DNA from: Spirochaetales bacterium
GTDB lineage: Bacteria; Spirochaetota; Spirochaetia; DSM-27196; SLST01
DNA length: 49,082 nucleotides
Assembly (NCBI GenBank): GCA_007130265.1
Contig: SLST01000469.1
Coordinates: forward strand, 1 to 49,082
Reading direction: 5' to 3'
A program made the translations under genes and the position numbers. The notes below the pieces were generated by a model. The model was not told the origin of the DNA and did not search any database. It saw only the letters and a list, made by a program, of their open reading frames with translations. Shown piece after piece: positions 9,984 through 46,896 of this stretch (position 1 is its first letter; the number at the start of each line of letters is the position of its first letter).

Positions 9984-9994
9984 GCCTGGAGATA

Positions 9995-28312: not shown

Positions 28313-28810
28313 TTGGCGTACTTCGACCCCGGAAGTGTAATCTGGAACCTGAGAAGCAGGAATAAGCTGGACGCGATCAGAGAGATCATCGATGAGACAC
28401 CCGTCTTCGCCGAGCACGAAGCGTTGAACACCGAAGAGTTCACCCGGATCGTGATCGCGCGCGAGAAGCTTCAGTCGACGGGCTTCGGACACGGCGTCGC
28501 GGTCGCGCACGGCAGGACCGAACAGGTCGATGAGCCGGTGATCGCGCTCGGCGTCTCGCACGAAGGAATCGACTACGACTCGTACGATGAGAAACCGGTG
28601 CACCTGCTCTTCATCATCGCAAACCATCCGGATCGGCAGGTAGACTATCTGCAGATCCTCTCAACGCTGGTGCTGATGGTACGCGACGAGCTCTTTCGTC
28701 GGGAGATTCTCGACTGCACCGATGCCGGCTCCGCGGAGCGGAAGCTGTGCGAGGTGTTCTCGAAGCTGATCGAACGTCAGCGCCTGCGCACCGTCGGACG
28801 CACGGCGTAG
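28313..28810 (+). CDS. ptsN: PTS EIIA-2 (EIIA-Ntr / PtsN-like) domain protein, stand-alone
   Basis: The TTG start is preceded by AGAGGTAA. The layout follows PTS_EIIA_2: ...VIWNLRSRNKLDAIREIIDE..., the phospho-His region STGFGHGVAVAHGR, then VHLLFIIANHP..QVDYLQILSTL. I recognised no EIIB, EIIC, EI or HPr genes in the window. Confidence 0.75.
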   Translation: MAYFDPGSVIWNLRSRNKLDAIREIIDETPVFAEHEALNTEEFTRIVIAREKLQSTGFGHGVAVAHGRTEQVDEPVIALGVSHEGIDYDSYDEKPVHLLFIIANHPDRQVDYLQILSTLVLMVRDELFRREILDCTDAGSAERKLCEVFSKLIERQRLRTVGRTA

Positions 28811-28819
28811 GCGGTACGA

Positions 28820-30109
28820 TCAGCGCGAGGAGACCGGTGCTCTTTCCCTGCCGGCCGCGAGCTCGGCGATCTCCAACGTCGCGAAGTAGTCGGTGAGGGT
28901 TTCCGCGCGTCTGATGAGATCGACCGACCCGTCCTCACGGAGCAGGAGTTCCGCGCTGCGCAGCTTCCCGTTGTAGTTGAAGCCCATTGAGTGACCGTGG
29001 GCGCCGGTATCGTGTATGACGAGGTAGTCGTCGACGTCGATGCGTGGAAGCTGCCGGTCGATCGCGAACTTGTCGTTGTTCTCGCACAGGCTTCCCGTGA
29101 CGTCGTAGGTCTCCGTCGCCGGGGCCTCCTCCTTGCCGAGCACGGTGATGTGGTGATAGGCGCCGTACATTCCGGGACGCATGAGATTCGCCATCGACGA
29201 GTCGAGCCCGACGTACTTCTTGTACGTGTCCTTCAGATGACGCACGCGGGTCACGAGGTAGCCGTGAGGCCCGGTCACGCATCGGCCGTTCTCCATGTAG
29301 ATCCGCATGGGATCAAGTCCGGCCGGCTCGATGATCTGCGAGTAGAGCTCGCGTATGCCGCGGGAGACGTAGTGTAGATCCACGGCGTCCTGGTCCGGTC
29401 GATAGGGTATGCCGATGCCGCCGCCGAGGTTGAGGAAGCCGATCCGAACGTCGGTTTTCTCGCGGATCTCTACGGCGAGCTCGAAGAGCAAGGCGGCTGT
29501 CTCGACGAAGTAGTCCGGATTGAGCTCGTTGCTCGCGACCATCGTGTGAAGCCCGAACTCCTGCGCACCGAGCTCTGCCGCTCGCCGGTACCCTTCGATG
29601 ATCTGGTCGCGCGTGAAGCCGTACTTCGCCTCTTCCGGCCGCCCGATGATGACGTTCCCCTCTTTGAGCGAACCCGGGTTATACCGCATGCAGATGCGGC
29701 GCGGCATGCCGATACCTTCGTGCAGGTAGTCGATATGCGAGTAGTCGTCGAGGTTGATGATGGCGCCGAGTTCCTTCGCCTGGGCGAACTCGCAGAGCGG
29801 CGTGTCGTTCGAGGTAAACATGATCAGGTCGCCGGGGGTCTCGAGATAGTCGCAGAGGGTGAGCTCAGCCGTGGAGGAACAGTCGAAGCCCATACCCTCA
29901 TCGGCGACGACCTGCATGATCGCAGGGTTCGGGAGCGCCTTCACGGCGAAGTAGTTGCGGAAACCGCCCGGAACCCAGCTGAAGGCCGACGCCATATCGC
30001 GGGCGGTCGCGCGGATACCCGCCTCGTCGTAGATGTGAAACGGCGTGGGATGGTCGTCCGTGAGTCGCTCGACGAAGTCGCGACCGAAGGGTACGTTCTT
30101 GGGTGTCAT
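28820..30109 (-). CDS. lysA: Diaminopimelate decarboxylase (group IV PLP decarboxylase)
   Basis: The sequence contains TPFHIYDEAGIR, YFAVKALPNPAIMQ (PLP Lys), LNLGGGIGIPY, GSLCENNDKFA and DTGAHGHSMGFNYNG. Confidence 0.85.
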   Translation of the reverse strand: MTPKNVPFGRDFVERLTDDHPTPFHIYDEAGIRATARDMASAFSWVPGGFRNYFAVKALPNPAIMQVVADEGMGFDCSSTAELTLCDYLETPGDLIMFTSNDTPLCEFAQAKELGAIINLDDYSHIDYLHEGIGMPRRICMRYNPGSLKEGNVIIGRPEEAKYGFTRDQIIEGYRRAAELGAQEFGLHTMVASNELNPDYFVETAALLFELAVEIREKTDVRIGFLNLGGGIGIPYRPDQDAVDLHYVSRGIRELYSQIIEPAGLDPMRIYMENGRCVTGPHGYLVTRVRHLKDTYKKYVGLDSSMANLMRPGMYGAYHHITVLGKEEAPATETYDVTGSLCENNDKFAIDRQLPRIDVDDYLVIHDTGAHGHSMGFNYNGKLRSAELLLREDGSVDLIRRAETLTDYFATLEIAELAAGRERAPVSSR

Positions 30110-30146: not shown

Positions 30147-32870
30147 TCACTTCTTGCTGAGGTTGAACACTCCGTCCCAGTCGGCCTTCGGCGGTTGCCT
30201 CATGAACGCCTTTACCCGGTCGACGTAGTACTGCGCCGGACCGTCGTCCGGGTACTTGTCCAGCACCTCCTTGAAGCAGCGACCGGCGGTGCGCCAATCC
30301 TTCGCCTCGAACGCGGTGAGTCCTGAGTTGAACGTGCGCAGCTTCGCGATCTGCTCCGGGTCGTTGTCCACCGGCTCGCGCAGGTTGACGAGCTCGTAGA
30401 GCCTGATCGGTTCGCTGATCCCGACGACTCGGACCCGGTCGAGTTTGCGGGCCGTGAAGCTCCGCTTCCCGGCCGCGTCGTCCTTGGTCTCGAGGTAGGT
30501 CTGCTCGCTCATCAGGATCCAGGTGCCGTACTGCTTGTTCACTCCTTCGAGACGGGCGGCCAGGTTCATGTTGTGCCCCATCGCGGTGTAGTCCATCCTC
30601 GTCTCGGTTCCCATGTTGCCGACGACCATGTCGCCGGTGTTGATGCCGATCCTCGTCAGTATGGGACTCGGGGCGACACCGGAAGCGCGGAACTCCTCGT
30701 TGAGTTCCCGCTCCTTCTCCTTCATGCGGATCGCCGCTCGGCACGCCCGTACCGGGTGGTCGGCGAGGTCGAGCGGCGCGTTCCAGAAGGCGATGATCGC
30801 GTCACCCTCGAACTTGTCGATCGTGCCGCCCTCGTCGATCACGATGTCGGTCATCGCGCCGAGGTATCGGTTGAGGAGGTCCGTCAGCTGTTCCGGCTCG
30901 AGCGACTCGCTGATCGTGGAGAAACCGCGGATATCGGTGAACATCGCGGTGAGATGCCTCTTGACACCGCCGAGCGCGAGCTTCGACGGGTCCTCGGTGA
31001 CCTGCCGGACGACTTCCGCCGACATGTAGTGTCCGAAGGCGTTGCGGATCTCGGTTTTCTGACGGTTCTCGCGCACGAACTTCACCGCCGTCAGCACGAC
31101 GAAGGTGAGGAAGACGCCGGCCGCGGGGGTCACCATGTTGAGGTAGATCCCCGCTGTCGCGAACAGCAGGATCCCGCCGCCTATGACGAGAAGCAGGGCG
31201 CCGAAGCCGACGAGCAGACTCGGAATGGGGTTGAGCTTGCTGATGAGAAGCGTCACGAGCACGGCCACGAGGAACATCACGGCGAGCGCGACGGTCCACG
31301 GCAGGTCGACGAGAAACTGTCCCTGGAGGATCGTATTGAGGACCGACGCGTGGGTACCCACGTTCATGTACTCCTCGTCGAACGGGGTAACCCCGATATC
31401 GGTCGTGGACGTCCCCACGTGACCGATGATGATGAAGCTCCCGGGAATCTCCTGCGCGAGAACGGCTCGGTTGTCGGTGAAACCGGCATAGATCCTCTCG
31501 AGCTCGTCGTAGAGCCGGGCCGCCTCCTCGAGCGCGTACCGGTAGTCGGCCTCGATCTCCGCGTCGAGGTCGGAGTCGAGCGCCGCCTCGATGTCCGCGA
31601 GCAACCGCTCGCGCGCGCCGGACTCGAGCAGACCGCCGATCATCGCGAAGAACTGCGCGCGAAGCTCTCGCCATTCGTCTATCTGCGACCGGTCACCGCC
31701 GTCAAGCACATCGCTCTCGAGCTCCCTCGTGTAGTCATAGAGCGTGAACAGCACGTCTGCCTGGTCGTAGTAGAAGAGATAGTTCAGCTGGTCCATCGCG
31801 CGCAGCCGCTCGAGCATCGATTCCTCGTCGAGCCGGTCTCTGATGAGTCGCCAGTAGGTCACGTGTCGGAAGCTCTCGTCGTAGTCCGCCTGGGGCCAGT
31901 TGATGAGCATCCGGCCGTCGGTGGCGAGCGGAATGCGAATCGTCACGGGCCGCTCGGCGCCCGGCACGATCGCGTCTTCGAGAACCACCGCGTTCGAAGC
32001 CACGGTGAGCCCCGGCCGGCCGAGCCAGTCGAGGAGCGGCGACATGACGAGCTGGCCGTAGTACGCGTCGTCTACTTTGGCGAGGAGATCAATACGGCGG
32101 CGAACGCCGTCGCGGTCGACCACGACGTTCGGGAATCCGGCTCCCGCGCCGCCCGCCGTCACCGGGTCGATCGTCGGCCTGATATCGGCTCCGCGACGAA
32201 ACGCCGCGTCAGGATACGCGGTGATGCCTTCAAGCCCGATCCGCCCGGCGACTGTCCCGCGATCGATCGCGAGCGGACTCTGCTCGGCGAGGATGTTCAC
32301 GGTGAACCAGGCCTCTCCGTGGAAGCGGGCTGCCTGGCCGAGAAAGGTGTCGTTGTCCCGCACGACGTCCATCGCGGCACGCTTGATATCGTGTCTGACC
32401 TCGTCGGTAATACCGGCGAGCTGATCGATGAAGTCGGTTGCCTCCTCGAGGGGGATCTGTCCCTCGACGAGCGCGCGGAACAGCGATCGTATCTGCTGCT
32501 GGATGAAGGCGAAGTCGTTGTCGATGATGACGGGAAGCACGTCCCTGAGGTACCGGCCGTCGATTGCCTGGGGGCTCTCGTCGACGTACTCGATATCAAA
32601 AACGACGTAGCCGGAGTCGAACTCTCGAAGGAGCATAAGTCCGTGAGCCATGTAGTCCCTGCTCCAGGGCCAGAGCCCGACATTGTCGATCGCGGTGTCG
32701 TCCACGTCGAGCAGGAGTATCTCCGGGCGTTCGGGAACCGCGGGCCTGATGTGGAGGAACAGGTCGTAGACCCGGTGCTCGGCGGTCTGATAGAGGGGAA
32801 GCAGGTTGAGCAGGACGAAAAGCGCCGCGACGGCAACGGGCACCACGAGCTCGACAAACCGCTTTCGCAT
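30147..32870 (-). CDS. CHASE2-sensor class III adenylate cyclase with a C-terminal TPR-like tail
   Basis: The N-terminal TM helix and CHASE2 pattern are present (RVYDLFLHIRP...ILLLDVDDTAIDNVGLWPWSRDYMAHGL). Three TM helices lie around residues 520-610. The cyclase core is LTAMFTDIRGFSTISE...IDKFEGDAIIAFWNAP...RIGINTGDMVVGNMG...YTAMGHNMNLAARLE. GGAGG precedes the ATG. Confidence 0.9.
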   Translation of the reverse strand: MRKRFVELVVPVAVAALFVLLNLLPLYQTAEHRVYDLFLHIRPAVPERPEILLLDVDDTAIDNVGLWPWSRDYMAHGLMLLREFDSGYVVFDIEYVDESPQAIDGRYLRDVLPVIIDNDFAFIQQQIRSLFRALVEGQIPLEEATDFIDQLAGITDEVRHDIKRAAMDVVRDNDTFLGQAARFHGEAWFTVNILAEQSPLAIDRGTVAGRIGLEGITAYPDAAFRRGADIRPTIDPVTAGGAGAGFPNVVVDRDGVRRRIDLLAKVDDAYYGQLVMSPLLDWLGRPGLTVASNAVVLEDAIVPGAERPVTIRIPLATDGRMLINWPQADYDESFRHVTYWRLIRDRLDEESMLERLRAMDQLNYLFYYDQADVLFTLYDYTRELESDVLDGGDRSQIDEWRELRAQFFAMIGGLLESGARERLLADIEAALDSDLDAEIEADYRYALEEAARLYDELERIYAGFTDNRAVLAQEIPGSFIIIGHVGTSTTDIGVTPFDEEYMNVGTHASVLNTILQGQFLVDLPWTVALAVMFLVAVLVTLLISKLNPIPSLLVGFGALLLVIGGGILLFATAGIYLNMVTPAAGVFLTFVVLTAVKFVRENRQKTEIRNAFGHYMSAEVVRQVTEDPSKLALGGVKRHLTAMFTDIRGFSTISESLEPEQLTDLLNRYLGAMTDIVIDEGGTIDKFEGDAIIAFWNAPLDLADHPVRACRAAIRMKEKERELNEEFRASGVAPSPILTRIGINTGDMVVGNMGTETRMDYTAMGHNMNLAARLEGVNKQYGTWILMSEQTYLETKDDAAGKRSFTARKLDRVRVVGISEPIRLYELVNLREPVDNDPEQIAKLRTFNSGLTAFEAKDWRTAGRCFKEVLDKYPDDGPAQYYVDRVKAFMRQPPKADWDGVFNLSKK

Positions 32871-32931
32871 TGTCTACCTCCGTGCTCGGAATCGTACTAC
32901 AATTGCATGGAGAGGCCAACATGAAGTATAC

Positions 32932-32947
32932 TGGCACCGACCACGCT
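32932..32947 (+). promoter_or_regulatory. Weaker sigma-54-like -24/-12 element upstream of the FecR envelope operon
   Basis: The sequence is TGGCACCGACCACGCT. The -24 half (TGGCAC) is perfect and the GG-GC register is correct (32933-34 and 32945-46). The -12 half is ACGCT rather than TTGCW, giving 9 of 12 specified positions. It lies only about 16 nt from the ATG at 32963. Confidence 0.3.
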
Positions 32948-32962
32948 CGGCAGGAGACCGCC

Positions 32963-33421
32963 ATGGCACGAAGCCCACGTTACGGATTCCTCGCTCTACT
33001 CCTCTTCGTAGCAGCAACACTTTCCGCCCAGACTAACGAGATGATCGACGCGATCCTCGCCGAGGAAGCCGTCTCGATCGGTTCGGCCGCCTACCTCGCG
33101 CTTTCGGCGGCGCAGCTGATCGCCGATGACGCGACACCGGGGCAGGCGGTCACCGTCGCGCGCGAGGCGGGCTGGCTTTCCGACGACGCCACGGCCGACC
33201 TGCCTGCGACGTTCGGTGAGCTCGCGTACCTTCTGATGCAGGCTACGGAGGTCAACGGCGGGCTGATGTACCGGCTGATCCCCGGGCCCCGGTACGCCGC
33301 GCGTGAGTTCGCCTACCGCGGCTGGGCACCGGAACGGATCGGCCCGCGCGAGCGTGTCTCCGGCCGGTTCGCCGTTCGGGTTACCGGCAACTTCCTCGAC
33401 CGCGTGGAGGGTTCACGATGA
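32963..33421 (+). CDS. Small secreted protein, family not recognised (first gene of the FecR envelope operon)
   Basis: The ATG at 32963 is preceded by AGGAG (32952-32956). The signal peptide is MARSPRYGFLALLLFVAATLSAQ. The ORF track starts 31 codons earlier. Confidence 0.6.
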   Translation: MARSPRYGFLALLLFVAATLSAQTNEMIDAILAEEAVSIGSAAYLALSAAQLIADDATPGQAVTVAREAGWLSDDATADLPATFGELAYLLMQATEVNGGLMYRLIPGPRYAAREFAYRGWAPERIGPRERVSGRFAVRVTGNFLDRVEGSR

Positions 33422-34731
33422 GGCGCTTCTGGTTCGTACTGCTGTTGCTGCCGCTGACGCTCCCGTCGGTACCGGCGCTCGACTTTGGCGGCTACCTCGA
33501 CAACACCTCGGGATTCGCCAGCTCGCCGGCCGGCGCGGAGACCGACCTCCAGCTCGTCCAGAGCACCACCGTCGCGCTCTGGATCGAACAGAGGCTCGGC
33601 GCATGGACGCTCGACGGCCGGGGAAACTACACCTACACGCCCAGTATCCCGGTGCTCTTTGATCTCGACCGACTGACCATTGGAACCGAGGTTGCCGCGA
33701 CGGAGGCTGGAGCGACGACTTTCAGTTTCGCCGTAGGCCGTTCGACCTACACCGACCCGACGGGGATGGTGCTCGCGCACGCGCTCGACGGGATGCGGCT
33801 GCGGGTCAACCGGACGCAGAGCTCGTTCGGGTTCGGGATCGGCACGACGGCGCTCCTGCAGAAACCCACGAACCGGATCATCCTGAGCCGCCTCGACGAG
33901 CTCGACCTCTCTGATCCGGAACGGAGATTCGCGCCGCCGCGACTGATCGCGCTCCTCAGCTACGAGCTCCTCGAAGCGTTCGCCGGGCAGGCGGTGACGC
34001 TCGGCGCGCTTGTGCAGGAGGACCTGCGGCCCACGGACCAACTGACTCCCCCCGGGACCGAGGGCACGACGCCGGATCCCGGAGCCGGCGGCCGTTTCGA
34101 CACGCAGTACCTGAGCCTCGCCGTCTCGGGGGCCGTTGCTCCGGGAGTCTATCAGCGAACCTACTACAGCCTGAACAGCGGCCGCCACCTGGTCTTCGCC
34201 GAGGACGAGCGAAGCGGCACCGGTTTCGCCTACCAATATGACACCTTTCTCGGGCACCTCGCCGGGACCGAGCTGACCTGGTTTCTGCGCGAGGCGCTCA
34301 ACTCGCGGGCGAGGATCTTCGGCCAGTTCAGTACCGGTGGCACGGAGTGGTCGGATACGTTCGTTCCCCTGTCGCCGGCTGCCTTTTCTGACGTATTCAG
34401 TTTACAACCCGGAAATTCCGCTCACCTTGGGATATCGTATAGTGTGCGACCGTTGGCCGGACGCGAATACGACGTGCTTCAGACCGAACTGAGCACGGTC
34501 TCGTACTTTCGCAGCTCGGCCGGCGGGGCAGTGTCGGAGGCGGCGGTCGACGCGACGTCCGACGGGGCGTACGTCGGGACCGACGTGAACCTGATCGTCA
34601 CGGCGGTTCCGTTCTCCGATCTGCGGCTCGTGCTGAAAGGTGGCGTATTCGCGCCCAATAAGGACGTGATGAGCCCTGAAAACAAAAACGTTGATTACCA
34701 GGTGACCCTGCAGGGCGTGTTGCGATTCTGA
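33418..34731 (+). CDS. Outer-membrane beta-barrel-like protein, family not recognised
   Basis: The ATG overlaps the previous stop (ATGA). The signal peptide is MRRFWFVLLLLPLTLPSVPA. The body has long amphipathic beta-like segments, and the C-terminus ...QVTLQGVLRF ends in Phe as in many OMPs. Confidence 0.6.
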   Translation: MRRFWFVLLLLPLTLPSVPALDFGGYLDNTSGFASSPAGAETDLQLVQSTTVALWIEQRLGAWTLDGRGNYTYTPSIPVLFDLDRLTIGTEVAATEAGATTFSFAVGRSTYTDPTGMVLAHALDGMRLRVNRTQSSFGFGIGTTALLQKPTNRIILSRLDELDLSDPERRFAPPRLIALLSYELLEAFAGQAVTLGALVQEDLRPTDQLTPPGTEGTTPDPGAGGRFDTQYLSLAVSGAVAPGVYQRTYYSLNSGRHLVFAEDERSGTGFAYQYDTFLGHLAGTELTWFLREALNSRARIFGQFSTGGTEWSDTFVPLSPAAFSDVFSLQPGNSAHLGISYSVRPLAGREYDVLQTELSTVSYFRSSAGGAVSEAAVDATSDGAYVGTDVNLIVTAVPFSDLRLVLKGGVFAPNKDVMSPENKNVDYQVTLQGVLRF

Positions 34732-34760
34732 GTCGCGGCTCCTGCGACGGGAGGAGAAGG

Positions 34761-35393
34761 ATGAAGAGGGTACTGTTGGTACTGGCGGTAGGCGCCGCGC
34801 TCGTCGCGACGGTCGGCGCCCGGAGCGCAACGGTGACCGGGTTTTCGGGGAAGGTCGAGTACCGGCTCGCCTCCGGCTGGGAGGCAGTCCGGATCGGGCT
34901 CGAGATCCCGCTCAACGCAACGATCAGCACCGGCTTCGGTGCAAGCGCCACGCTCGAGGTCGCCGGGTCGACGATCGAGGTTGCCCAGTTGACCAGACTC
35001 ACGCTCGAAGAGCTCGTCGACGACGGTTCGACCGTGAGCACGGAGGTTTTCGTGCCGGTGGGACGGGTCCGGGCGTCGGTGACGACGCCGGCAGACCGAT
35101 CGTCGGACTTCCGCGTCCGCACCGCACAATCCACGGCTGCGGTTCGCGGGACCGAATTCGAGACGAACGGCTGGCGCATCTTCGTCCGCGAAGGCAGCGT
35201 CGAGTTCCAGAACGAGCTCGGCCAGTCGAGGGTCATCCGCTCGTCGCAGATCAGCCGGACGAGACTCGGCGGGCCGACCGACCCGCTCGAGGAAGACAAC
35301 AACGAGGCGAATGTCGGCGACAGAGAGGGCCCGGAAGACTTCCGCGGCCGTCGTGGACCCTCCGGCTACATCACCGTCCGGTGGGGATGGTAG
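34761..35393 (+). CDS. FecR-domain protein with a signal peptide
   Basis: The signal peptide is MKRVLLVLAVGAALVATVGA. The FecR-like core is GFSGKVEYRLASGWEAVRIGLEIPLNATISTGFGASATLEVAGSTIEV... ...TAQSTAAVRGTEFE.... Confidence 0.7.
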   Translation: MKRVLLVLAVGAALVATVGARSATVTGFSGKVEYRLASGWEAVRIGLEIPLNATISTGFGASATLEVAGSTIEVAQLTRLTLEELVDDGSTVSTEVFVPVGRVRASVTTPADRSSDFRVRTAQSTAAVRGTEFETNGWRIFVREGSVEFQNELGQSRVIRSSQISRTRLGGPTDPLEEDNNEANVGDREGPEDFRGRRGPSGYITVRWGW

Positions 35394-35403
35394 GGAGGTC
35401 ACC

Positions 35404-36870
35404 ATGAAGAAGCTCATCAGAGTCGGCACGGCGGCCGCGATTGCGGCACTGCTCGCCAGCTGTTATATCAGCCTTGACGAAGGGGCGGGCGCCGTTGGAA
35501 TCCAGCTGCCGCCGCCGCAGAGCGCGACCGGCGCCGCAATCGGGCAGACCGGGCGGATCTATGTGATCAACGGCGCGACGCTCATCAACGTGGGCGATGA
35601 AGCGCCGTACGCGGAGTTCGACCTCGAGCCCACCCCGGGCGAACGGCTGACCGAGTACAGCGTGGGTCCGGTGCCGGCCGGCCCGGGCTACCGCGTCGTC
35701 GTGGTCTTCGGGTCGTACGCGCGGGCGGGGGGCCGGGGCGAGTTCTTCGTTCCCGCCAGCTACGCGCTCAGCGAGGAGTTCGCGGTGGCCGCCGGACAGG
35801 CGAACGAGACCGAAGAGCTCACGCTCACCGACGCACGGTTCGCGCCGGTCGATCTCGCGAACACCCTGGGCAGGGAGCTGGTGGGGATCACCTTCGTTCC
35901 TGACGCGAACCCCCTTGACTCGCGCCTCTACGCCGCGACGGACACACGGTTGTACGAAGCGACCATCCCGTCGGTGGACGAGTACGGTGACGTCACCTTC
36001 GCGGACGACTACCCGGTTCCCGGCGGCCGCACGATCAACAGTCTCTCGCTCGGGGCAGACGACGACGGGCCGGCGGTCTGGGTCAACACGACGAGGGGTA
36101 TCCTCGTGGGCACGGACTTTGACGGGTCGATCATGACCAACAGCGGCCTCGCGGAGAGGTCGATCCTTGATTCCGGGGCCCTCTACCGGTCGCCTGTCCA
36201 CTACGGTTACCTGCAGTTCGACGGCGGCGTGAGCGCGGTCCAGAGGGTTCCCGCAACCGACACGACGAACTGGCTCGAACCGGCGGACCTGAGCGAGATC
36301 GTCGTGGGTCGTCCGGTCTACAGTATGGACGTCGAACGCGGGACGACTGCCACGGCGGGCTATTTCGCGACGAAGATCGGCGCCTTCAGGCTGAGAGAGG
36401 ACATCCTTACCCTGGATCTCTCCACTGTCCAGCAGATATTCGCCAGCCCCTATACCGACTTCTTCGAAGTAGAGATAGGCGGGCAGGCGGCGACAATCAC
36501 GAGCGTGGCGGTCGTAAACGTCGTCGGTGGCGATGCCGACTACCTCTACGTGGGAACGCCGCGAGGCGCGATGCGGGTCGAGATCGCAGACATTGGGGCG
36601 AGCCCGGGCACCGACCGCGTGCAAGGGCTCCTGATTCCGCAGGCGACCGGTCAGGTCGTCAAGGATATCGTTGCGCAGGGTGATCTCATCGTAATCGTGA
36701 CGAGTCACTCTCTGCTCTACTCGATGAACGGGTCGGCGTCAACGCCCACCTTCACCGAGGTACCGCTCTACGCAAGCTCGGTAGGCGAGGTAACCGGTAT
36801 CCTTGTCGATCAGACGAATGGAATTGCGCTGCTTTCTGGAACCGGCGGACTGGTTGCGATACAGTTGTAG
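35404..36870 (+). CDS. Lipoprotein (488 aa), family not recognised
   Basis: The ATG at 35404 is preceded by GGGAGG. The lipobox is MKKLIRVGTAAAIAALLASC. The ORF track starts 31 codons upstream, inside the FecR gene. Confidence 0.65.
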   Translation: MKKLIRVGTAAAIAALLASCYISLDEGAGAVGIQLPPPQSATGAAIGQTGRIYVINGATLINVGDEAPYAEFDLEPTPGERLTEYSVGPVPAGPGYRVVVVFGSYARAGGRGEFFVPASYALSEEFAVAAGQANETEELTLTDARFAPVDLANTLGRELVGITFVPDANPLDSRLYAATDTRLYEATIPSVDEYGDVTFADDYPVPGGRTINSLSLGADDDGPAVWVNTTRGILVGTDFDGSIMTNSGLAERSILDSGALYRSPVHYGYLQFDGGVSAVQRVPATDTTNWLEPADLSEIVVGRPVYSMDVERGTTATAGYFATKIGAFRLREDILTLDLSTVQQIFASPYTDFFEVEIGGQAATITSVAVVNVVGGDADYLYVGTPRGAMRVEIADIGASPGTDRVQGLLIPQATGQVVKDIVAQGDLIVIVTSHSLLYSMNGSASTPTFTEVPLYASSVGEVTGILVDQTNGIALLSGTGGLVAIQL

Positions 36871-36909
36871 TGGATTTTCACAGGTGATCCGCGAAGCTTC
36901 CGGATGCCT

Positions 36910-36949
36910 CCGGGTCGTGCTATTCCTCCGGCGCGGCCCGGCTTTTTTT
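36910..36949 (+). terminator. Rho-independent terminator closing the FecR envelope operon
   Basis: Bases 36910-36921 (CCGGGUCGUGCU) pair with 36930-36941 (GGCGCGGCCCGG). The stem is 12 bp (9 Watson-Crick plus 3 G-U pairs) with an 8-nt loop. One C and a T7 run (36943-36949) follow. It lies 40 nt after the stop at 36870. Confidence 0.6.
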
Positions 36950-36963
36950 GCTGGACACAGCCG

Positions 36964-37257
36964 ATGAAGTGCCGACCGGGCTGCGGCGCCTGCTGCATTG
37001 CCGCCTCCATCAGCTCGCCTCTACCGGGAATGCCGGACGGGAAACCGGCCGGGCTTCGCTGCGTCAACCTCGACGAGACCTACCGGTGCACGATCTGGAG
37101 CACGAGCGAGTACCCGGCGGTATGCCGCGCCCTGAACCCCGAACCGGAGATGTGCGGCGCCGACCGCGATGAGGCGCTTGCCGCATTGAGAGAGTTGGAG
37201 GCCCGCACGCAGCCGGATATTTCTCTGGTGCCTCTTCAGGTGCCGAGGATGGGGTAG
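36964..37257 (+). CDS. ykgJ: YkgJ-family cysteine-cluster protein
   Basis: MKCRPGCGACCIAASISSPLPGMPDGKPAGLRCVNLDETYRCTIWSTSEYPAVCRALNPEPEMCG is the conserved CxxCxxCC family pattern. The ORF-track start at 36904 would place the terminator inside the gene. Confidence 0.75.
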   Translation: MKCRPGCGACCIAASISSPLPGMPDGKPAGLRCVNLDETYRCTIWSTSEYPAVCRALNPEPEMCGADRDEALAALRELEARTQPDISLVPLQVPRMG

Positions 37258-37952: not shown

Positions 37953-39005
37953 CTACTGCCAGCGAACGTTGAGCGCAACGCCGGGGTACCCGGTGCCGAT
38001 GCCCCACGAACCGTTGACCTGGAGCACAACGCGCCCGAAGACCATGTCGAACCCGCCAAAGACCACGATCGAGAGATCATCGCGGACGACGGCGGTACTC
38101 GGGGCTCTTCCCGTGTACTCGACATCCCTGTCGCCGTCATCGTCATAATCCACATAGGCGTCGAACTCGTTCCCCGGACTACCGACGCCGCCGCTGAACG
38201 ACGCGATGTGATAGTAGGGCGAAATGCCGACGTAGGGAACGAAAAAACCGAACGCCTTGGACGCGTGGACGTCGAGACCGAAGGCGTGAACGCGGCTGTC
38301 CGCGCTCATGACGCCCTTGAGATAGAGCTCGCCGAGCTCGACGGAGAGCCCTCCATAGTCGCCGCGTCCGGTCCCGAGCTGAGCCAGGTCGTAGGCGAAT
38401 CGAAACCCGCTGTAGCTGTACCCGGCACCGACGGAGATCGCGGGAAACGGCCCCGCGTCTTTGAGAACGGCGCGCCGCACCTTGGTTCCCAGATGCACCA
38501 TGCCGAGCTCGAGGCCGTCCGCGTTGAGGCCGCCGAGGATCGGGGCCGTCACGAAGGCGGGAACTCCACCGAACCCCACCATTGCCTCGAGGTCACCGGG
38601 TAGCTTGACCCCGGCCGAGACCCGGGAAACCGGCACGGGGAAGAATGTCTTCATCCCCTCAGAAGCGTCGGTCAGGGCATCCACCGCAGCGGCATCGAGT
38701 ATGGTGCGGAACAACCCGGGCACATTGAGCACCGTGAACGCTTCTTCATCGTCCACGAAGCCCAGGACTCCGTCGGTGAAGATCGTGCCGAGCGACAACG
38801 TCAGGAAGAACCGCGAACCGTCGACGAAGCTGGCCGACCCGGTGTACTGGCCCCAGATCGCGGACTGCGTCAGAGCCGGCAGCGTCGCGGCGCCGAGCTC
38901 CTCGATCACGACCTCGAAGTCACGTCCGAGTCCCGACAGATCCTGAGCGGAGACGCCGGAGACGAGGACAAGGGCGACGACAAACAGTACAAGCATTCGC
39001 TTCAT
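37953..39005 (-). CDS. Secreted or outer-membrane barrel-like protein, family not recognised
   Basis: The ATG at 39005 is preceded by AGAGGTG. The signal peptide is MKRMLVLFVVALVLVSGVSAQ. The body is Gly/aromatic-rich and beta-like (GAGYSYSGFRFAY, VPYVGISPYYH). The ORF track starts 27 codons upstream. Confidence 0.6.
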   Translation of the reverse strand: MKRMLVLFVVALVLVSGVSAQDLSGLGRDFEVVIEELGAATLPALTQSAIWGQYTGSASFVDGSRFFLTLSLGTIFTDGVLGFVDDEEAFTVLNVPGLFRTILDAAAVDALTDASEGMKTFFPVPVSRVSAGVKLPGDLEAMVGFGGVPAFVTAPILGGLNADGLELGMVHLGTKVRRAVLKDAGPFPAISVGAGYSYSGFRFAYDLAQLGTGRGDYGGLSVELGELYLKGVMSADSRVHAFGLDVHASKAFGFFVPYVGISPYYHIASFSGGVGSPGNEFDAYVDYDDDGDRDVEYTGRAPSTAVVRDDLSIVVFGGFDMVFGRVVLQVNGSWGIGTGYPGVALNVRWQ

Positions 39006-39121
39006 ATGCGCACCTCTGCGGCGGGGGATGCTGCGCCTATCATACGCATTTCGGTGAGGATGATCCACCGTTTTCGCCCGGCGCACCGCCCCGGCGCGGT
39101 CGGTCGCGAACGCATGCGCGC

Positions 39122-39157: not shown

Positions 39158-40090
39158 ATGAGATCCGAACTCCGTGACGGTCGGCCGCATCGGTTCCCGC
39201 GCGTCCCGCTGCATCTGCGGATCGCAGTGGCCGCGTGCATCGCAGGTCTCATCGTCGGCGGACAGGCCTTCGCGCGCGACTTCCCGGTACCGTTCGCCAT
39301 GGGTGACCCGTTCTCGCTCGCCGACGATCGGGGGCTGCTGCCCGGAGGCCACGCCGACGTCGCGTACCATCACTACACCTTTCTCAAGGGACCGCACGAC
39401 CTCTTTTCCATCCGGCAACGCGCGGCTATATCGCTGCTCAACACCGGCCGGCTCGCAGCCGGGTTCTCCTACCAGAACCACCTGCTCGTAGGTCCGGTCA
39501 GACCGGGCGAGGACCCGTTCAGCATCGCCGAGTGGAACATGAATGCGATCCAGTTCGAGTACGGGGCGGTGGTCGGCGTGAGACTCCCGCCGGTCATCAC
39601 CTTCGAGTACGGACGCACGAGCCAGCATCCGCTTCGCGGCGGGTACTCGGAAGTCTCGACCGACCTCGTACAGCTCTCGGTCTACGCCGAACCGCTGACG
39701 TGGCGCCGGCTGACGCTCCTCACCGGCCTGCGATTTGCTCACGTCGACCTGTACGACTTCTGGGACAGCCCGCTGCACAGGCCGCGCACGCGGTACCGCG
39801 TGGAGATCCCACTCGAGGGACGGTGGGAGCTTCCTCCGCACGGACTCGTGATCGTCGCCCGCGCCTGGCCGAGAGTTCTTCTCCTGCGCACCCAAGGCGC
39901 CTGGGAGTACGCGAAGATCGATCCTCCGGTTCAGACCGAGATCGACGCCGAGCTCGGCATCCGGCTCGAACGGCGGTCGGCGATCGAGCTCGTGCTCGAG
40001 TTCTACTCCACGGCGGACAGCGAGCAAATCCGCGGGGAAGCTGCGCCGCTCACGACGCTCGGTGTCACCGCGCGGATTGGGACGAGGTGA
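39158..40090 (+). CDS. Secreted or outer-membrane-like protein, family not recognised
   Basis: The hydrophobic signal-like segment is LHLRIAVAACIAGLIVGGQAFA. The frame has beta-rich segments and strongly G/C third positions. The competing minus ORF 39002..40027 is Arg/Glu/Asp-rich and overlaps the neighbouring gene start. Confidence 0.6.
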   Translation: MRSELRDGRPHRFPRVPLHLRIAVAACIAGLIVGGQAFARDFPVPFAMGDPFSLADDRGLLPGGHADVAYHHYTFLKGPHDLFSIRQRAAISLLNTGRLAAGFSYQNHLLVGPVRPGEDPFSIAEWNMNAIQFEYGAVVGVRLPPVITFEYGRTSQHPLRGGYSEVSTDLVQLSVYAEPLTWRRLTLLTGLRFAHVDLYDFWDSPLHRPRTRYRVEIPLEGRWELPPHGLVIVARAWPRVLLLRTQGAWEYAKIDPPVQTEIDAELGIRLERRSAIELVLEFYSTADSEQIRGEAAPLTTLGVTARIGTR

Positions 40091-40113: not shown

Positions 40114-40572
40114 TCAGTGAATATTTCTGATCACATCCGTACCGTCGTCGACGATGATCACGTAGATCAGACGGTTCAGCGACTTGGCCGGATCCGGGAG
40201 GAAGCCGAACTGGATCGCGACGCCGTCGTCCGGGAAGGTCCGACTCGTGATGCTCCCGGAGAGCGACGATGTCCCCGGGAAGCCGCTCAGGGCATCACCG
40301 GCCTGGAGGCCCCTCGTAGCGAACGGCTGCTCACCCAGGTCGAAGAAGGTCTCCTCCCAAAAGCCCGACGTGTTCATCGATGCATAGCTCGGCGCATTCG
40401 GGTGAAAGTGTTCCCGCAACGCGACGTAGTCGCGGGGTGACTCGTTCGCCGTCTCGATGAAGGCGGCGGCGCGTTCGGAGTCGGTGAGGTGCTCGCCGGA
40501 AAACCACTCGCATCCGGAGAGGAGGAGCAGGCCGGTCAGAGCGGCGGCGGCGAGAATGGTCTTCCTCTTCAT
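40114..40572 (-). CDS. Small lipoprotein (152 aa), family not recognised
   Basis: The ATG at 40572 shares one base with the upstream TGA. The lipobox is MKRKTILAAAALTGLLLLSGC. Confidence 0.65.
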   Translation of the reverse strand: MKRKTILAAAALTGLLLLSGCEWFSGEHLTDSERAAAFIETANESPRDYVALREHFHPNAPSYASMNTSGFWEETFFDLGEQPFATRGLQAGDALSGFPGTSSLSGSITSRTFPDDGVAIQFGFLPDPAKSLNRLIYVIIVDDGTDVIRNIH

Positions 40573-41606
40573 CAGAACCTCCAGGGTAGATCGCTCGGGA
40601 CGAGCCACGGTACCACGACGGACTCGTACTGTGAGCGGATTGCGGCGAGATCGCTTCGGAACTCGTCGATCACGCGGCTCTCCGGCTCGAAAAAGGACTG
40701 CGCCTCCACTTCGGCGGCGAGCCGCGAGAATATGTGCTGGTCGAGCGAGAGCGCTGAGAGCACGACGAACCTGAGATCGACGAAGGCGGCGCGCGCGGCG
40801 CGACGCGCCGGCATCACGGTACCGCGAAAGTGCTCCTGACGCGCCTCGAGCCCGTCTGCCTCTTCAATTTCATCGAGCCGGGCACTCTCTTCGGCGGAAC
40901 GCGCGAGCAACGCCTCGACCTGGGGGGCACGGCGGCGAATGTCGTCGAGAAGGTCCTGCATCTCCGCGGCGATTCCGCGAAGCGACGGCAGGGGGTCGGC
41001 GAGGAACCCTTCTACGAGCCCGGCGTTCCAGACGCCGTAGTCGATTGGACGCTCAAGGAAGGCGAACACGTTCTGCGGCCCGGCGCCTTCGCCCGGCGTG
41101 ATCTCGATTCCCTGCTCGGGACCGAGCGTCACGCGGCGCGCCGCGTCTTCGATCTCGATGAGGCCCTCGAGTACCTCATAGCGCGTCGTCCCGTCGCTGC
41201 CGACGTAGACGCGCACCTCCGTCCCACGAACGCCGGCAACCGAAGTCGTCGACCCCATCCGCGGCTCGTTCCCGACCGCGGCGCTGAACCGGAAGCTGAA
41301 CGAGCCGACGGCGGCCGCAACCCGGCTAACCGGTTCGCCCCCGGCTCCCGTCGTCGATCCGATGATGAAGACAGTATCGCGCCCGACGTTCACGGTGCCG
41401 CCGGTCGTGAGCTCGAGCTCAGCTTCCCCGATTCGTTTCGTGATCACCCGATCGCCGGAGTCGAGCTCGTCACCGAAGTCGGCAGGAAAGGTAAGGCCGC
41501 TTTCAGTCCGGACATCGACGTCGCCGGCGACATAGACAACGGTTGCGTCCTGCGCGGGCAGCAGGGCCGCGGCGAGAACGAAGAGAACGAGTACAAGTCG
41601 ATTCAC
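40572..41606 (-). CDS. FecR-domain protein with a signal peptide and a long helical C-terminal region
   Basis: The GTG start overlaps the upstream stop (GTGA). The signal peptide is MNRLVLVLFVLAAALLPAQ. The FecR-like core is VVYVAGDVDVRTESGLTFPADFGDELDSGDRVITKRIGEAELEL...VAGVRGTEVRVYV. Confidence 0.7.
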   Translation of the reverse strand: MNRLVLVLFVLAAALLPAQDATVVYVAGDVDVRTESGLTFPADFGDELDSGDRVITKRIGEAELELTTGGTVNVGRDTVFIIGSTTGAGGEPVSRVAAAVGSFSFRFSAAVGNEPRMGSTTSVAGVRGTEVRVYVGSDGTTRYEVLEGLIEIEDAARRVTLGPEQGIEITPGEGAGPQNVFAFLERPIDYGVWNAGLVEGFLADPLPSLRGIAAEMQDLLDDIRRRAPQVEALLARSAEESARLDEIEEADGLEARQEHFRGTVMPARRAARAAFVDLRFVVLSALSLDQHIFSRLAAEVEAQSFFEPESRVIDEFRSDLAAIRSQYESVVVPWLVPSDLPWRF

Positions 41607-42043
41607 AGTCGCCCCCTGACGAGTCCCACGAGCATGGGAAGCCTGTTCGCCTCTCCGGCGAAAATGAGCGTGAGGTCACCCGAGCTGCTCGGTACGACAA
41701 CGAACCGGGCCTCTGCCGGGAGACGGTCATAGAACACGTGCACGTCGAAGCGCGCATCGGTTCCCGCCGGCGCCGCGGACTCGTTGGCGATGACCCGCGG
41801 CGAGACGACGAGCCCACCCTCGCGAAGACGTTCGAGGATTGCTACGAGATCGGAATCGGCGTAGAGCACCTGATCGTTGAACAGGAACGGGGTGCCGCTC
41901 TGCGTGATGAACTCACCCGGCTCCGCCGTGTTGAACTGATCGATCACCTCGACGACGCTCGCATCACGCTGCGCCGGCGGGATCGTGGCGCACGCGCCGA
42001 GCAGGACCGCCACCGCCGCAACGGCGGCCAGACGTACTCTCAT
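41603..42043 (-). CDS. Small lipoprotein (146 aa), family not recognised
   Basis: The ATG at 42043 gives the lipobox MRVRLAAVAAVAVLLGAC. The ORF-track extension to 42331 runs into ppk. Confidence 0.6.
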   Translation of the reverse strand: MRVRLAAVAAVAVLLGACATIPPAQRDASVVEVIDQFNTAEPGEFITQSGTPFLFNDQVLYADSDLVAILERLREGGLVVSPRVIANESAAPAGTDARFDVHVFYDRLPAEARFVVVPSSSGDLTLIFAGEANRLPMLVGLVRGRL

Positions 42044-42083
42044 GGATACCCCCGTGTAATGGTATGCCGCTTTCGGCCCGAAT

Positions 42084-44246
42084 TCAATTGCCCCTTGGGT
42101 ACGCATCGCCTGCCTTGCGCCGAACCTCGAACTCTTTCTGATTTGTCGCGCTGGTGTCGGGCGACCGGTCACGGGCCTGCTCCTGGAGCGCGAGCTGGCT
42201 CCGTACGGCGGGCGAGCCGGGCTCCGAAGACACAGGCCGGTACGACCCGTCCGACTCGAGCAGGTGCGCGTTTGTCGCATCCTCGAAGGCGAATCCGAGT
42301 ACGGACATCGCGCGGCTCTTTGCGTCGGCATCGGCGACGGGGAAGAGGAGCTCTACGCGGCGTTCGAGATTTCGCGGCATCCAGTCGGCGCTCGACGCGT
42401 AGACCTCCGAAGCCCCCCCGTTGTGGAAGTAGAAAAGCCGCGCGTGCTCGAGATAGCGGTCCACGATGCTGACCACGGTTATGCTCTCGCTCATTCCCGG
42501 CACTCCGGGAACAAGCATGCAGATGCCGCGAACGTTGAGCCTGATCTCGACCCCTGCCTGTGACGCCCGGTAGAGCGCTTCGATCACATCCGGATCGGCG
42601 AGGCTGTTGAGCTTCGCGTGGATACGGCCGACGATGCCCGTGCCGGAACGCAGAGCTTCCCGCTCGATGAGCTGGAGAAGTCGGCCCTTGAGACCGACCG
42701 GCGCCATCACGAGCTCATTCAGCGAAGGAATGGCCGAGTAACCGGTGATCGCGTTGAAGAAGAGCCCGACCTCGTAGGCGATCGTCGGCCTCGTAGTCAG
42801 GAGACTGAAGTCCGTATAGAGGCGGGCCGTCTTGTCGTTGTAGTTGCCGGTTCCCAGATGAACGTAGCGGCGAATCGAGTTCTGCTCGCGGCGCACAACC
42901 AGCAGCGCCTTCGCGTGCACCTTCAGCCGCGCGATCCCGTAGACGACGATCACGCCGGCGTGCTCGAGGCGCTCGGCCCAGGTGATGTTGCGCTCCTCGT
43001 CGAAGCGCGCCTTGATCTCGACGAGGACCATCACCTGTTTGCCGGCAGCTGCCGCCTGCTCGAGCGCCTGTACCACCGGCGAATCGCCGCTCGTGCGATA
43101 GAGGGTCATTTTGATGGCCAGGACCCCGGGGTCGCTCGCGGCATCGCGCAGGAGCCGTATGACGGGCTCGAAAGTTTCGAAGGGATGGTACAGCGCCACG
43201 TCACGCTTTCTCAGCGTGTCCCACAGCGGCCCATCGAGCGGCAGATCCGGCGAGTCGTAGTGCTGCCATCTCGGGTACTTGAGCTCCTCGAACCCGGCGA
43301 TCGACGCGAGATCGGCAAGCTCGCCAATGTCGAGCGGTTCGGCCTTGTCGAACATCTCGCCCTCGTCGATCCCCACGACCTCGCTGAGCATCTTTCGCAG
43401 ACGTCCGGCGCCGCGACTCACCGAGAGGCGCACGGGTCTGCTGAACTCGCGGTGTGCGACGATCTGCTCCATCGCTTCGACGAAGTCTTCGTCACGCTCC
43501 TCGTCGACGCCGACGTCGGCATCGCGCGTCACCCGGAAGACACAGCGCTCAACCACCGTATACCCGGCAAAAAGCGAGGAGGCATGCTGCACCACCACGT
43601 CCTCGAGCAGGGTGAAGGATACGCTACCCGCCTCGTCGGGCAGGTAGATGATCCGGTCGAGAGACTTCGGGATCTGTACGATCGCGAGGTACTCGCCGCT
43701 CTCCTCGTCACCGGCGGACACAAGATCGGCGTCGGCCTGAGGCTCGAGAACAAAGGCCGCATGCAGGCGCAGGTTCGTGATGTAGGGCATCGGTTGCCCA
43801 ACCGCGGCGCGCACGGGCGTGAGAACCGGAAAGATCTCCTCCTGATAGAGCTTCTTGAGGAACGAGCTCTGCGTCGGCGTGTAGTCGCGGGGCCTGCGAA
43901 GCACCAGCCCCGCCTTCGCGAGCCCCGGTACAATCTCTTCAAGCAGACAGCGGTACTTCCGGGTAGCCATTTCGCGGGTGCGCCCTAGAATACGTGAGAG
44001 TAGCGCCGACGGGGCGATCCCCGACGGGCACTGGACGTAGTCGCCGCTCTCGATCTGCCGTTTGACCGCGGCGACACGAACCATGAAGAACTCGTCAAGG
44101 TTCGTAGTAACGATACAGAGGAACCTCAGTCTCTCGAGCAGAGGCACGTCGGGCCGCAACGCCTGAGACAGCACGCGTGCGTTGAACTCGAGCCAGCTGA
44201 GCTCGCGGTTGAAGTATTGTGGCGGGCGGGACGGTGATACACCCAT
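42084..44246 (-). CDS. ppk: Polyphosphate kinase 1
   Basis: The sequence contains YFNRELSWLEFNARVLSQA..., LERLRFLCIVTTNLDEFFMVRVA and two PLD-like HKD-type regions (KVHAKALLVVR, RIHAKLNSL). GAGAGGA precedes the ATG. Confidence 0.93.
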   Translation of the reverse strand: MGVSPSRPPQYFNRELSWLEFNARVLSQALRPDVPLLERLRFLCIVTTNLDEFFMVRVAAVKRQIESGDYVQCPSGIAPSALLSRILGRTREMATRKYRCLLEEIVPGLAKAGLVLRRPRDYTPTQSSFLKKLYQEEIFPVLTPVRAAVGQPMPYITNLRLHAAFVLEPQADADLVSAGDEESGEYLAIVQIPKSLDRIIYLPDEAGSVSFTLLEDVVVQHASSLFAGYTVVERCVFRVTRDADVGVDEERDEDFVEAMEQIVAHREFSRPVRLSVSRGAGRLRKMLSEVVGIDEGEMFDKAEPLDIGELADLASIAGFEELKYPRWQHYDSPDLPLDGPLWDTLRKRDVALYHPFETFEPVIRLLRDAASDPGVLAIKMTLYRTSGDSPVVQALEQAAAAGKQVMVLVEIKARFDEERNITWAERLEHAGVIVVYGIARLKVHAKALLVVRREQNSIRRYVHLGTGNYNDKTARLYTDFSLLTTRPTIAYEVGLFFNAITGYSAIPSLNELVMAPVGLKGRLLQLIEREALRSGTGIVGRIHAKLNSLADPDVIEALYRASQAGVEIRLNVRGICMLVPGVPGMSESITVVSIVDRYLEHARLFYFHNGGASEVYASSADWMPRNLERRVELLFPVADADAKSRAMSVLGFAFEDATNAHLLESDGSYRPVSSEPGSPAVRSQLALQEQARDRSPDTSATNQKEFEVRRKAGDAYPRGN

Positions 44247-44254
44247 GTTTCCTC

Positions 44255-46761: not shown

Positions 46762-46800
46762 TGGTTCCCCCGGCTTCAGTGTATCCGAATCTGCCGCCTC

Positions 46801-46816
46801 TGGCATCAGCTTTGCT
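46801..46816 (+). promoter_or_regulatory. Sigma-54 (RpoN) -24/-12 promoter
   Basis: The sequence is TGGCATCAGCTTTGCT. GG (46802-03) and GC (46814-15) are in the canonical register. It matches 10 of the 12 specified consensus positions. It lies 81 nt upstream of the GTG at 46897. Confidence 0.55.
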
Positions 46817-46896
46817 GCACGGATGTGTCTTCGAGCGCGCCCAGGGGCGCCGGGACCTCCCTTGCGCAGCGCCGACGGCTGAGGTAGGCTCTGCGG

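Follow-up and report, generated by a model that had tools for sequence, protein, structure and literature searches.

The 49,082-nucleotide contig SLST01000469.1 of a Spirochaetales bacterium (assembly GCA_007130265.1), which we analysed over its whole length and refer to as the window, carries a CHASE2 class III cyclase gene head to head with a four-gene operon (g1–g4) for outer-envelope proteins. As the source of the cyclase's input signal, the operon is a strong candidate, judged from sequence and gene linkage. Together they are the spirochaete form of a CHASE2–FecR pairing that is already known and mechanistically unexplained, with an AlgE-like outer-membrane barrel and the g1 family added. 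The window has a G+C content of about 65%, and among the collected genomes the one nearest to it is a metagenome-assembled genome (MAG) from soda-lake sediment, Spirochaetales bacterium CSSed162cmB_334, with a cyclase 92% identical at the protein level (locus L004).

The cyclase (907 aa; 30147..32870, minus strand) matches the Pfam profiles CHASE2 (E 2.6e-30) and Guanylate_cyc (E 5.8e-16). Its hydrophobic segments (residues 8-26, 526-544, 552-570 and 575-598) delimit, in order, a first transmembrane helix, a CHASE2 region, three more transmembrane helices, the catalytic domain and a short TPR-like tail; the portion between the first two segments, of ~500 aa, is periplasmic, and the catalytic domain is cytoplasmic, as is usual for CHASE2 proteins. 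Residues D646, K686, D690, T762, N769 and R773 are invariant in an alignment of 16 orthologues. We take D646/D690 to be the metal-binding aspartate pair, K686/T762 the substrate pair, and N769/R773 the transition-state asparagine and arginine of a class IIIb enzyme; because this complete class IIIb set is invariant, the protein is probably an active adenylate cyclase. At E ≤ 1e-20 the cyclase has 326 homologues, and each named match belongs to the Spirochaetota, as do all named homologues of the operon genes.

A 92-bp divergent intergenic region (32871..32962) separates the cyclase ATG at 32870 from the g1 ATG at 32963. The operon runs on the plus strand and encodes a secreted all-helical protein (g1, 152 aa, 32963-33421), an outer-membrane β-barrel ending in GVLRF (g2, 437 aa, 33418-34731), a periplasmic FecR-domain protein (g3, 210 aa, 34761-35393) and a lipoprotein (g4, 488 aa, 35404-36870). 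The stop of g1 and the ATG of g2 overlap by 4 nt, and gaps of 29 nt and 10 nt precede g3 and g4, respectively. All four products begin with a basic stretch followed by a hydrophobic one, and the AlphaFold models of g1 and g2 have N-terminal helices consistent with signal peptides. The operon is closed by an intrinsic terminator on the plus strand (36910..36949), in which a stem of 12 pairs (9 G-C, 3 G-U; 36910-36941) encloses a loop of 8 nt and is followed by a T7 tail (36943-36949); a free energy of −24.2 kcal/mol was calculated for it (z = −2.25 vs. shuffles), and no further plus-strand terminator-like sites lie within the operon. An earlier note on this DNA had described the same anatomy, and open reading frame (ORF) coordinates, Pfam and terminator checks bear out each of its structural statements. 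The profile search agrees with a CHASE2 class III cyclase on the minus strand at 30147-32870, and the start codons with a 92-bp gap. The 152-aa secreted product of gene 1, the 437-aa gene 2 with its GVLRF end and overlapping ATG, the 210-aa gene 3 with a FecR match over the cut-off, and the 488-aa gene 4 with its lipobox all stand as described, as does the 12-bp-stem/U7 terminator at 36910-36949 by stem pairing, tail and folding energy. The export signals that it saw on all four products were likewise found, by hydrophobicity rather than with a dedicated predictor.

We compiled 83 cyclase loci, 80 fetched through the 16-orthologue alignment (one genome per species) and 3 from look-ups of encoding contigs, and searched their ORFs with iterated hidden Markov models (HMMs) of g1–g4. 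Sixty-nine loci were evaluable and a further 14 had too little flank. The earlier note had staked its proposal on recurrent linkage of cyclase orthologues to such genes, and this search found the g1-g2-g3 triad near the cyclase in 62 of the 69 evaluable Spirochaetota loci (~90%). The triad is full in 51 loci, cut by a contig end in 11, partial in 3 and missing from 4. Where full, it is divergent and adjacent as in the window in 44 loci, divergent with an insertion of 1.6-2.8 kb in 2, convergent downstream of the cyclase in 4, and downstream on the same strand in 1. The cyclases of triad loci are 39-92% identical to the window protein. In two loci (L063 and L029) the whole unit of cyclase and operon is tandem-duplicated, and in another (L006, 2194-9816) two complete operon copies (g1-g2-g3-lipoprotein) lie in convergent orientation beside a single cyclase. 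The window's other neighbours (a decarboxylase gene, an EIIA gene and PurL) are kept in only 7-9 loci. Passive synteny as the cause of the linkage is thus ruled out by the rearranged triads, the duplications and the loss of other neighbours. The four triad-less cyclases do not form one paralogue clade; they are scattered over the cyclase tree and therefore point to independent losses or relocations.

The linkage was also followed in reverse, from g1, in a contig scan that yielded 72 metagenome loci. Wherever there was room, g2 followed g1 (53 of 53) and g3 followed as well (27 of 27). A CHASE2 ORF was found in 43 of these g1-centred loci, 40 times as an adjacent divergent gene and 3 times downstream in the same orientation. 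It was absent from 9 g1 loci with at least 1.5 kb of upstream sequence, of which only L112 and L147 extend for at least 4 kb in both directions.

The divergent spacer contains the palindrome AGTATACT (32925-32932), in which TATACT can be read on either strand. TTGCAT lies 18 nt upstream of it on the operon side (32903-32908), and AGGAG precedes the g1 ATG. With at most one mismatch, AGTATACT occurs in 24 of 52 orthologous cyclase-g1 spacers, vs. 4.2 expected from shuffles, and its density is 3.9 per kb in spacers vs. 0.22 per kb elsewhere in the loci (~17-fold), in genomes that span 34-69% G+C. The palindrome is probably the −10 element of the operon and possibly serves the cyclase promoter as well; if one −10 element is common to both promoters, transcription of the cyclase and of the operon would therefore be coupled.

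The second operon product, which had been described as barrel-like, is an outer-membrane barrel of the AlgE type in our models. AlphaFold2, given a 50-sequence alignment, predicted 18 strands (pLDDT 90.2, pTM 0.84), and the best 17 Foldseek matches of this model in the PDB were all AlgE (E down to 1.6e-16, TM-score 0.67-0.73). Five of 50 g2 homologues match Pfam Alginate_exp (PF13372; best E 8.4e-11), and the window g2 itself has no match to that profile at E ≤ 0.1. This points to a distant relative, not a clear family member. Neither of two receptor types fits: a TonB-dependent transducer would be a plugged 22-strand barrel, and g2 has 18 strands with no plug or signalling domain; an NsrA-like receptor would be far longer than its 437 aa (NsrA has ~1200 aa).

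For g1 we found no Pfam match and no sequence match in the PDB, even with a 35-sequence profile. Its AlphaFold2 model is all-helical and well scored (pLDDT 91.2, pTM 0.82). The best 13 Foldseek matches of this model are all SLH domains and all weak (E 0.03-2, TM-score 0.47-0.54). By sequence g1 is not an SLH domain, since none of 35 family members matches Pfam SLH at E ≤ 1 and no SLH chain appeared in the PDB profile search; we take the likeness of the modelled fold for no more than a lead. Among 1.84 billion representative proteins, a profile search placed 1306 representative clusters in the g1 family at E ≤ 1e-3, nearly all of ~150 aa, and the database names of g1 and g2 homologues are all 'hypothetical protein'. 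On this profile evidence g1 founds a large family without annotation.

The four g1-family matches longer than 300 aa (P0297, P0371, P0386 and P0307) are informative about where g1 acts. P0297 (578 aa) is a g1::g2 fusion, in which residues 161-553 can be aligned to mature g2 (30% identity, E 3e-47). The junction lacks the g2 signal peptide, as would be expected if the protein is a true single polypeptide rather than a frameshift read-through. It is encoded in two independent assemblies (L087, 3037-4773; L088, 3047-4783), each with a divergent CHASE2 cyclase and then a FecR gene. P0371 and P0386 have, C-terminal to g1, a peptidoglycan-binding domain of the OmpA-like type (E 1.9e-18 and 4.5e-20 to Pfam OmpA), and the P0371 gene (L089, 239-1219) is followed by homologues of g2 and g3 (E 2.7e-81 and 1.9e-64). 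P0307 combines g1 with a small, weakly matching outer-membrane barrel. Because of the g1::g2 and g1–OmpA-like fusions, g1 is predicted to act in the periplasm, attached to the outer-membrane barrel, and the module is predicted to be anchored to the cell wall in some cases.

The FecR domain of g3 (Pfam PF04773) spans residues 54-148 (E 4.5e-10; 40.3 bits vs. a cut-off of 24). In the family alignment the signal peptide and the FecR domain are followed by a variable linker of low complexity and, at the C-terminus, by a short conserved strand (...GYITVRWGW) whose last residue is aromatic. The Pfam scan of g3 shows no anti-sigma domain and no FecR_C domain, and beyond residues 4-22 there is no hydrophobic segment, hence no transmembrane anchor. 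A PDB sequence search gave no match, and the only NCBIfam matches are the Leptospira FecR-domain lipoproteins Lsa33 and LipL45, far under their cut-offs. In g4, the lipobox LLAS|C has a cysteine that is invariant in a 14-sequence alignment. Profile matches are weak, to FN3 in the N-terminal part (E about 0.02-0.1) and to the β-propeller 3ott (E 2.7e-4), the sensor propeller of a Bacteroides hybrid kinase, and a trace of NHL is seen in L087. The protein thus probably consists of an Ig/FN3-like N-terminal domain and a β-propeller. A lipoprotein follows g3 in most loci, most position-4 genes having a lipobox, and it varies in length and sequence, with only about 22 detectable g4 homologues. From these comparisons g4 appears as the fast-evolving fourth member of a core made up of g1-g2-g3, with the cyclase as near-constant partner.

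Neither a sigma-70 region 2 or 4 domain, as would mark an extracytoplasmic function (ECF) sigma factor, nor a domain of TonB-dependent receptors or their plugs, nor a CRP-like or cyclic-nucleotide (cNMP)-binding regulator turned up in Pfam scans of 35 window ORFs, 8 of which have no Pfam match at all. The first two results agree with the earlier note, which had recognised neither an ECF sigma factor nor a TonB-dependent receptor in the 49 kb. Polysaccharide synthesis or export genes were found neither in these scans nor in the annotated neighbourhoods of related loci. Rfam and tRNA scans of the window were empty.

CHASE2 and FecR-like genes had been believed, in the earlier note, to be frequent neighbours in other genomes, and published reports back that belief (PMC5192318, PMC9239204, PMC5498481). 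In Burkholderia and its relatives, and in Pseudomonas aeruginosa, the gene of a LysM+FecR protein (COG4254) adjoins that of a CHASE2 histidine kinase; the Burkholderia 'BiofilmReg' operon and the PBP-HK pair of P. aeruginosa PAO1 encode a response regulator, the LysM+FecR protein, the CHASE2 histidine kinase and a DUF4136 protein (PMC5192318). A cluster in Campylobacterota comprises a CHASE2 adenylate cyclase, a cyclic AMP (cAMP) phosphodiesterase, a FecR-domain protein of the outer membrane and a TPR protein (PMC9239204), and in Sinorhizobium meliloti smc02177, with a FecR domain, lies near cyaD1 (PMC5498481). None of these three papers gives a mechanism for the pairing. According to two further papers, the S. 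meliloti cyclases CyaD1, CyaD2 and CyaK require the outer-membrane protein NsrA for signal perception (PMC13001267, PMC7529298). The CHASE2 literature cited here describes no direct ligand, and the top-ranked search results for spirochaetes make no mention of CHASE2.

We consider it an even call whether the cyclase and the operon constitute a single conserved Spirochaetota signalling module that relays an input across the envelope. In such a relay, g2 would be the AlgE-like outer-membrane barrel of an assembly anchored in the outer membrane and the cell wall and built from g1–g4. Its periplasmic helical partner would be g1, translationally coupled to it in the window, and g3 would act as a soluble periplasmic FecR-domain adaptor. 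Either the variable lipoprotein g4 or the loops of the g2 barrel would provide the variable recognition part. By contact with the CHASE2 region that the inner-membrane cyclase exposes in the periplasm (~500 aa), the assembly would set the activity of the enzyme, so that an event at the outer envelope (a ligand on the lipoprotein or barrel loops, or a change of envelope state) would be converted into cytoplasmic cAMP. We favour an input relay because the two-way linkage survives rearrangement and en-bloc duplication, because a FecR neighbour accompanies the CHASE2 sensor in other phyla whatever the output domain, because a peptidoglycan-binding element recurs (LysM in Burkholderia, OmpA-like fusions here), and because NsrA sets a precedent for an outer-membrane protein needed by CHASE2 cyclases. 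That the FecR neighbour stays constant while the output varies between histidine kinase and adenylate cyclase speaks for a sensor-side link. The trans-envelope sensing complex with the cyclase as its output, proposed in the earlier note, thus retains its recurrent linkage and its barrel, and three of its features need revision. It omitted g1, which belongs to the core and which some genomes encode in fusion with the barrel; it counted in the lipoprotein, which is the least conserved part; and it described a FecR protein without its sigma partner, which is the wrong frame for a g3 that carries no anti-sigma domain.

More tentatively, and with some doubt on our part, CHASE2 domains might be docking platforms for FecR-domain adaptors that report the state of an assembly anchored in the outer membrane and the cell wall, rather than sensors of small ligands. 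The assembly reported on would consist of the g2 barrel, g1 and a variable surface or periplasmic lipoprotein in spirochaetes, and of the LysM-FecR protein in Betaproteobacteria. Were this true, the module would be the input machinery of a general trans-envelope route parallel to FecA-FecR-FecI, ending in second messengers or a phosphorelay, and CHASE2 would gain a partner to test.

Distance matrices for 42 taxa are consistent with the input relay and support it weakly: the divergence of g2 and that of the periplasmic CHASE2 region are correlated with r = 0.83 (partial r 0.78 with the catalytic domain controlled), whereas the catalytic domain vs. g2 gives 0.02 once CHASE2 is controlled. The support is weak because the CHASE2 region and g2 are both long and fast-evolving, which inflates the correlation through length and rate, and one phylogeny is common to all. 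This inflation is one of several points that weigh against the relay. AlgE-like barrels are known as polymer exporters, not as receptors. Four cyclase orthologues have no module nearby, and within 4-8 kb of at least three g1-g2-g3 modules (L084, L112 and L147) a CHASE2 gene is missing; as either can occur alone, neither strictly needs its partner in cis. We show the anatomy of the genes, the modelled folds of g1 and g2, the FecR domain, the linkage and the fusions, and infer every contact between the proteins, which way the signal runs and what it is. Finally, smc02177 and smc02178 beside cyaD1 and clr in S. meliloti are activated by cAMP-Clr and are dispensable for perception of the plant signal (PMC5498481).

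This last case is also a precedent for a model in which the operon is the target of the cyclase and not its input. Here cAMP, via a regulator encoded elsewhere, would act on the divergent promoter and remodel the envelope through a pore, a surface lipoprotein and an outer-membrane tether, with a mixed feedback loop as a variant. We think this unlikely. The 92-bp spacer common to both units could, with its conserved palindrome, be a promoter or operator, and the modules without a nearby cyclase fit the model too; however, the palindrome resembles an ordinary −10 hexamer, no CRP-like TGTGA-N6-TCACA site was seen by eye in the spacer, and the window encodes no CRP or cNMP-binding regulator by Pfam. 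FecR also adjoins CHASE2 histidine kinases, whose output is not cAMP, so that the constant partner is the periplasmic sensor (PMC5192318). Alternatively, g1–g4 might be an autonomous envelope structure exchanging no direct signal with the cyclase, either a tether of the SLH-porin/OmpA type or an AlgE/AlgK-like channel for a polymer or solute, which the enzyme adjoins for co-expression or for historical reasons. The AlgE fold of g2 agrees with this, as do the fusions of g1 to barrels and to OmpA-like peptidoglycan-binding domains, its weak resemblance to SLH domains and, again, the cyclase-less modules; pairs of a barrel and a lipoprotein are typical of exopolysaccharide export. We nevertheless regard it as unlikely: the cyclase linkage outlasts inversion, relocation and en-bloc duplication over 39-92% identity where other neighbours are lost, no glycosyltransferase or polymerase genes accompany the module in loci with listed neighbours, and the FecR domain has no known structural or transport role.

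The Pfam FecR match of g3, and nothing else, speaks for a fourth reading, in which g3 is a FecR-type regulator of canonical cell-surface signalling orphaned from an ECF sigma factor and a TonB-dependent transducer encoded elsewhere. We judge this highly improbable and close to refuted. Where such a regulator would carry an anti-sigma domain in the cytoplasm and a transmembrane helix, g3 has a cleavable signal peptide; it lacks FecR_C, and the 18-strand barrel is free of both plug and signalling domain. Neither the window nor the listed neighbours of nine related loci include a sigma factor or a TonB-dependent receptor. FecIRA signalling in its canonical form is ruled out by the missing anti-sigma domain and by the absence of sigma factor and receptor genes from the window.

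Two secreted proteins without a Pfam match, orf377 (37953..39086, minus strand, its likely start being the internal methionine of MKRMLVLFVV) and orf310 (39158..40090, plus strand), may be further envelope components and are possible accessory genes. Homologues of orf377 occur in 14 cyclase loci, in at least 10 of them directly beyond g4 and usually convergent. For orf310, the cyclase-less L084 has a homologue (33% identity, E 2e-37) immediately upstream of g1, and the module there (8001-15163) is extended by a g4-like lipoprotein and two genes (476 and 610 aa) with no Pfam match. Just downstream of ppk1 in the window is a second envelope trio (40114-42000, minus strand) with no CHASE2 gene alongside. 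It consists of a small lipoprotein (within 41603-42331, minus strand, with the internal start MRVRLAAVAAVAVLLGAC), a secreted FecR-domain protein of 344 aa (40572-41606, minus strand; Pfam FecR E 1.3e-3, under the cut-off, and E 1e-27 with the g3 HMM for its L004 orthologue), and another lipoprotein (40114-40608, minus strand, LLLSGC).

Immediately downstream of the cyclase are an ornithine/diaminopimelate/arginine (Orn/DAP/Arg)-type pyridoxal-phosphate (PLP) decarboxylase (28820-30109, minus strand) and, beside it, a nitrogen-type EIIA-2 protein of the phosphotransferase system (PTS; 28313-28810, plus strand). Both are kept by the cyclase in 8-9 closer loci. The decarboxylase could have a part in polyamine metabolism, and a connection of these genes with the module is speculative. 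On the other side of the operon, the longest ORF of a CxxCxxCC-domain gene (36904-37257, plus strand) starts inside the operon terminator, and since its Pfam match begins at residue 22, the start is probably the methionine at 36964, past the terminator. Further away is a polyphosphate cluster (42084-47658, minus strand) that encodes Ppk1 (720 aa), an HD-domain phosphatase of the Ppx/GppA type (514 aa) and a ROK-family protein (620 aa) whose N-terminal extension of ~300 aa has no Pfam match. Consecutive genes (20055-23699, plus strand) encode a MoxR-type AAA ATPase and proteins with DUF58 and with DUF4129, a trio that is kept beside PurL in L001 and L002. Glycoside-hydrolase genes (1932-5128, 10800-16261 and 18116-20038) encode a GH29 fucosidase, a GH3 enzyme, a 1159-aa alpha-amylase-family protein, a GH77 4-alpha-glucanotransferase and a putative hydrolase with DUF4015, and suggest a polysaccharide-degrading lifestyle.

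CHASE2 is the sensor domain of cyclases, histidine kinases and diguanylate cyclases, and the module offers it a well-defined and strongly conserved set of candidate partners within one phylum. Carriers in culture include Breznakiella homolactica RmG30 (locus L071). If the relay is true, it would explain the FecR-domain genes beside CHASE2 sensors in several phyla and would be a second kind of trans-envelope signalling besides the TonB/ECF systems. If the operon is instead the target, a cAMP-controlled envelope structure of spirochaetes has been identified. Either outcome would give a function to several large families of hypothetical proteins.

Each known system resembles the module in part. 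The Burkholderia/PAO1 sets likewise place the gene of a CHASE2 membrane sensor beside that of a secreted FecR-domain protein, include a peptidoglycan-binding element (LysM there; g1 with an OmpA-like domain in some genomes here) and have a further small exported protein in the cluster. In contrast, these proteobacterial genes are co-directional rather than divergent, the output is a histidine kinase and response regulator rather than a cyclase, and both an outer-membrane barrel and a member of the g1 family are missing; functional evidence for 'BiofilmReg' is a biofilm phenotype of the regulator mutant only (PMC5192318). In Campylobacterota, a CHASE2 adenylate cyclase is again clustered with a FecR-domain envelope protein and a protein-interaction partner, in a pathway that its authors proposed from clustering alone (PMC9239204). 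That cluster has a phosphodiesterase and a TPR protein that are absent here, and no AlgE-like barrel, g1 or propeller lipoprotein is reported for it.

In S. meliloti, CHASE2 adenylate cyclases depend on an outer-membrane β-barrel protein for an external signal, and a FecR-domain gene and a periplasmic-protein gene adjoin one of the cyclases. However, NsrA (~1200 aa) has its barrel in the C-terminal half and is not AlgE-like; the texts consulted (PMC5498481, PMC7529298, PMC13001267) do not place it beside the cyclases. The FecR neighbour there is a cAMP target not required for perception, and the locus encodes the Crp-type regulator Clr, which has no counterpart here.

With FecA-FecR-FecI the module shares a periplasmic FecR domain next to an outer-membrane barrel and the idea of a relay across the envelope, whereas it has no sigma factor, its FecR protein lacks an anti-sigma domain and a membrane anchor, its barrel is of the 18-strand AlgE-like type without plug or signalling domain, and its presumed output is cAMP. 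The structural systems are approached from other sides: AlgE/AlgK through the 18-strand fold of g2 and its encoding with a lipoprotein, OmpM (SLH plus porin) through the g1::g2 fusion, which mimics its arrangement of periplasmic domain and barrel, and OmpA through the g1–OmpA-like fusions, which tie the g1 family to the cell wall. Unlike AlgE/AlgK, the module has no polysaccharide synthesis genes beside it, unlike the SLH domain of OmpM g1 is not SLH by sequence, and none of the three systems includes a FecR domain or a cyclase. In the Rcs relay, the lipoprotein RcsF and outer-membrane barrels report envelope state to the inner-membrane protein IgaA through periplasmic contacts. Rcs is related to the module neither by sequence nor by fold, and yet, as a functional analogy only, it provides a model of the module's possible mode of action.

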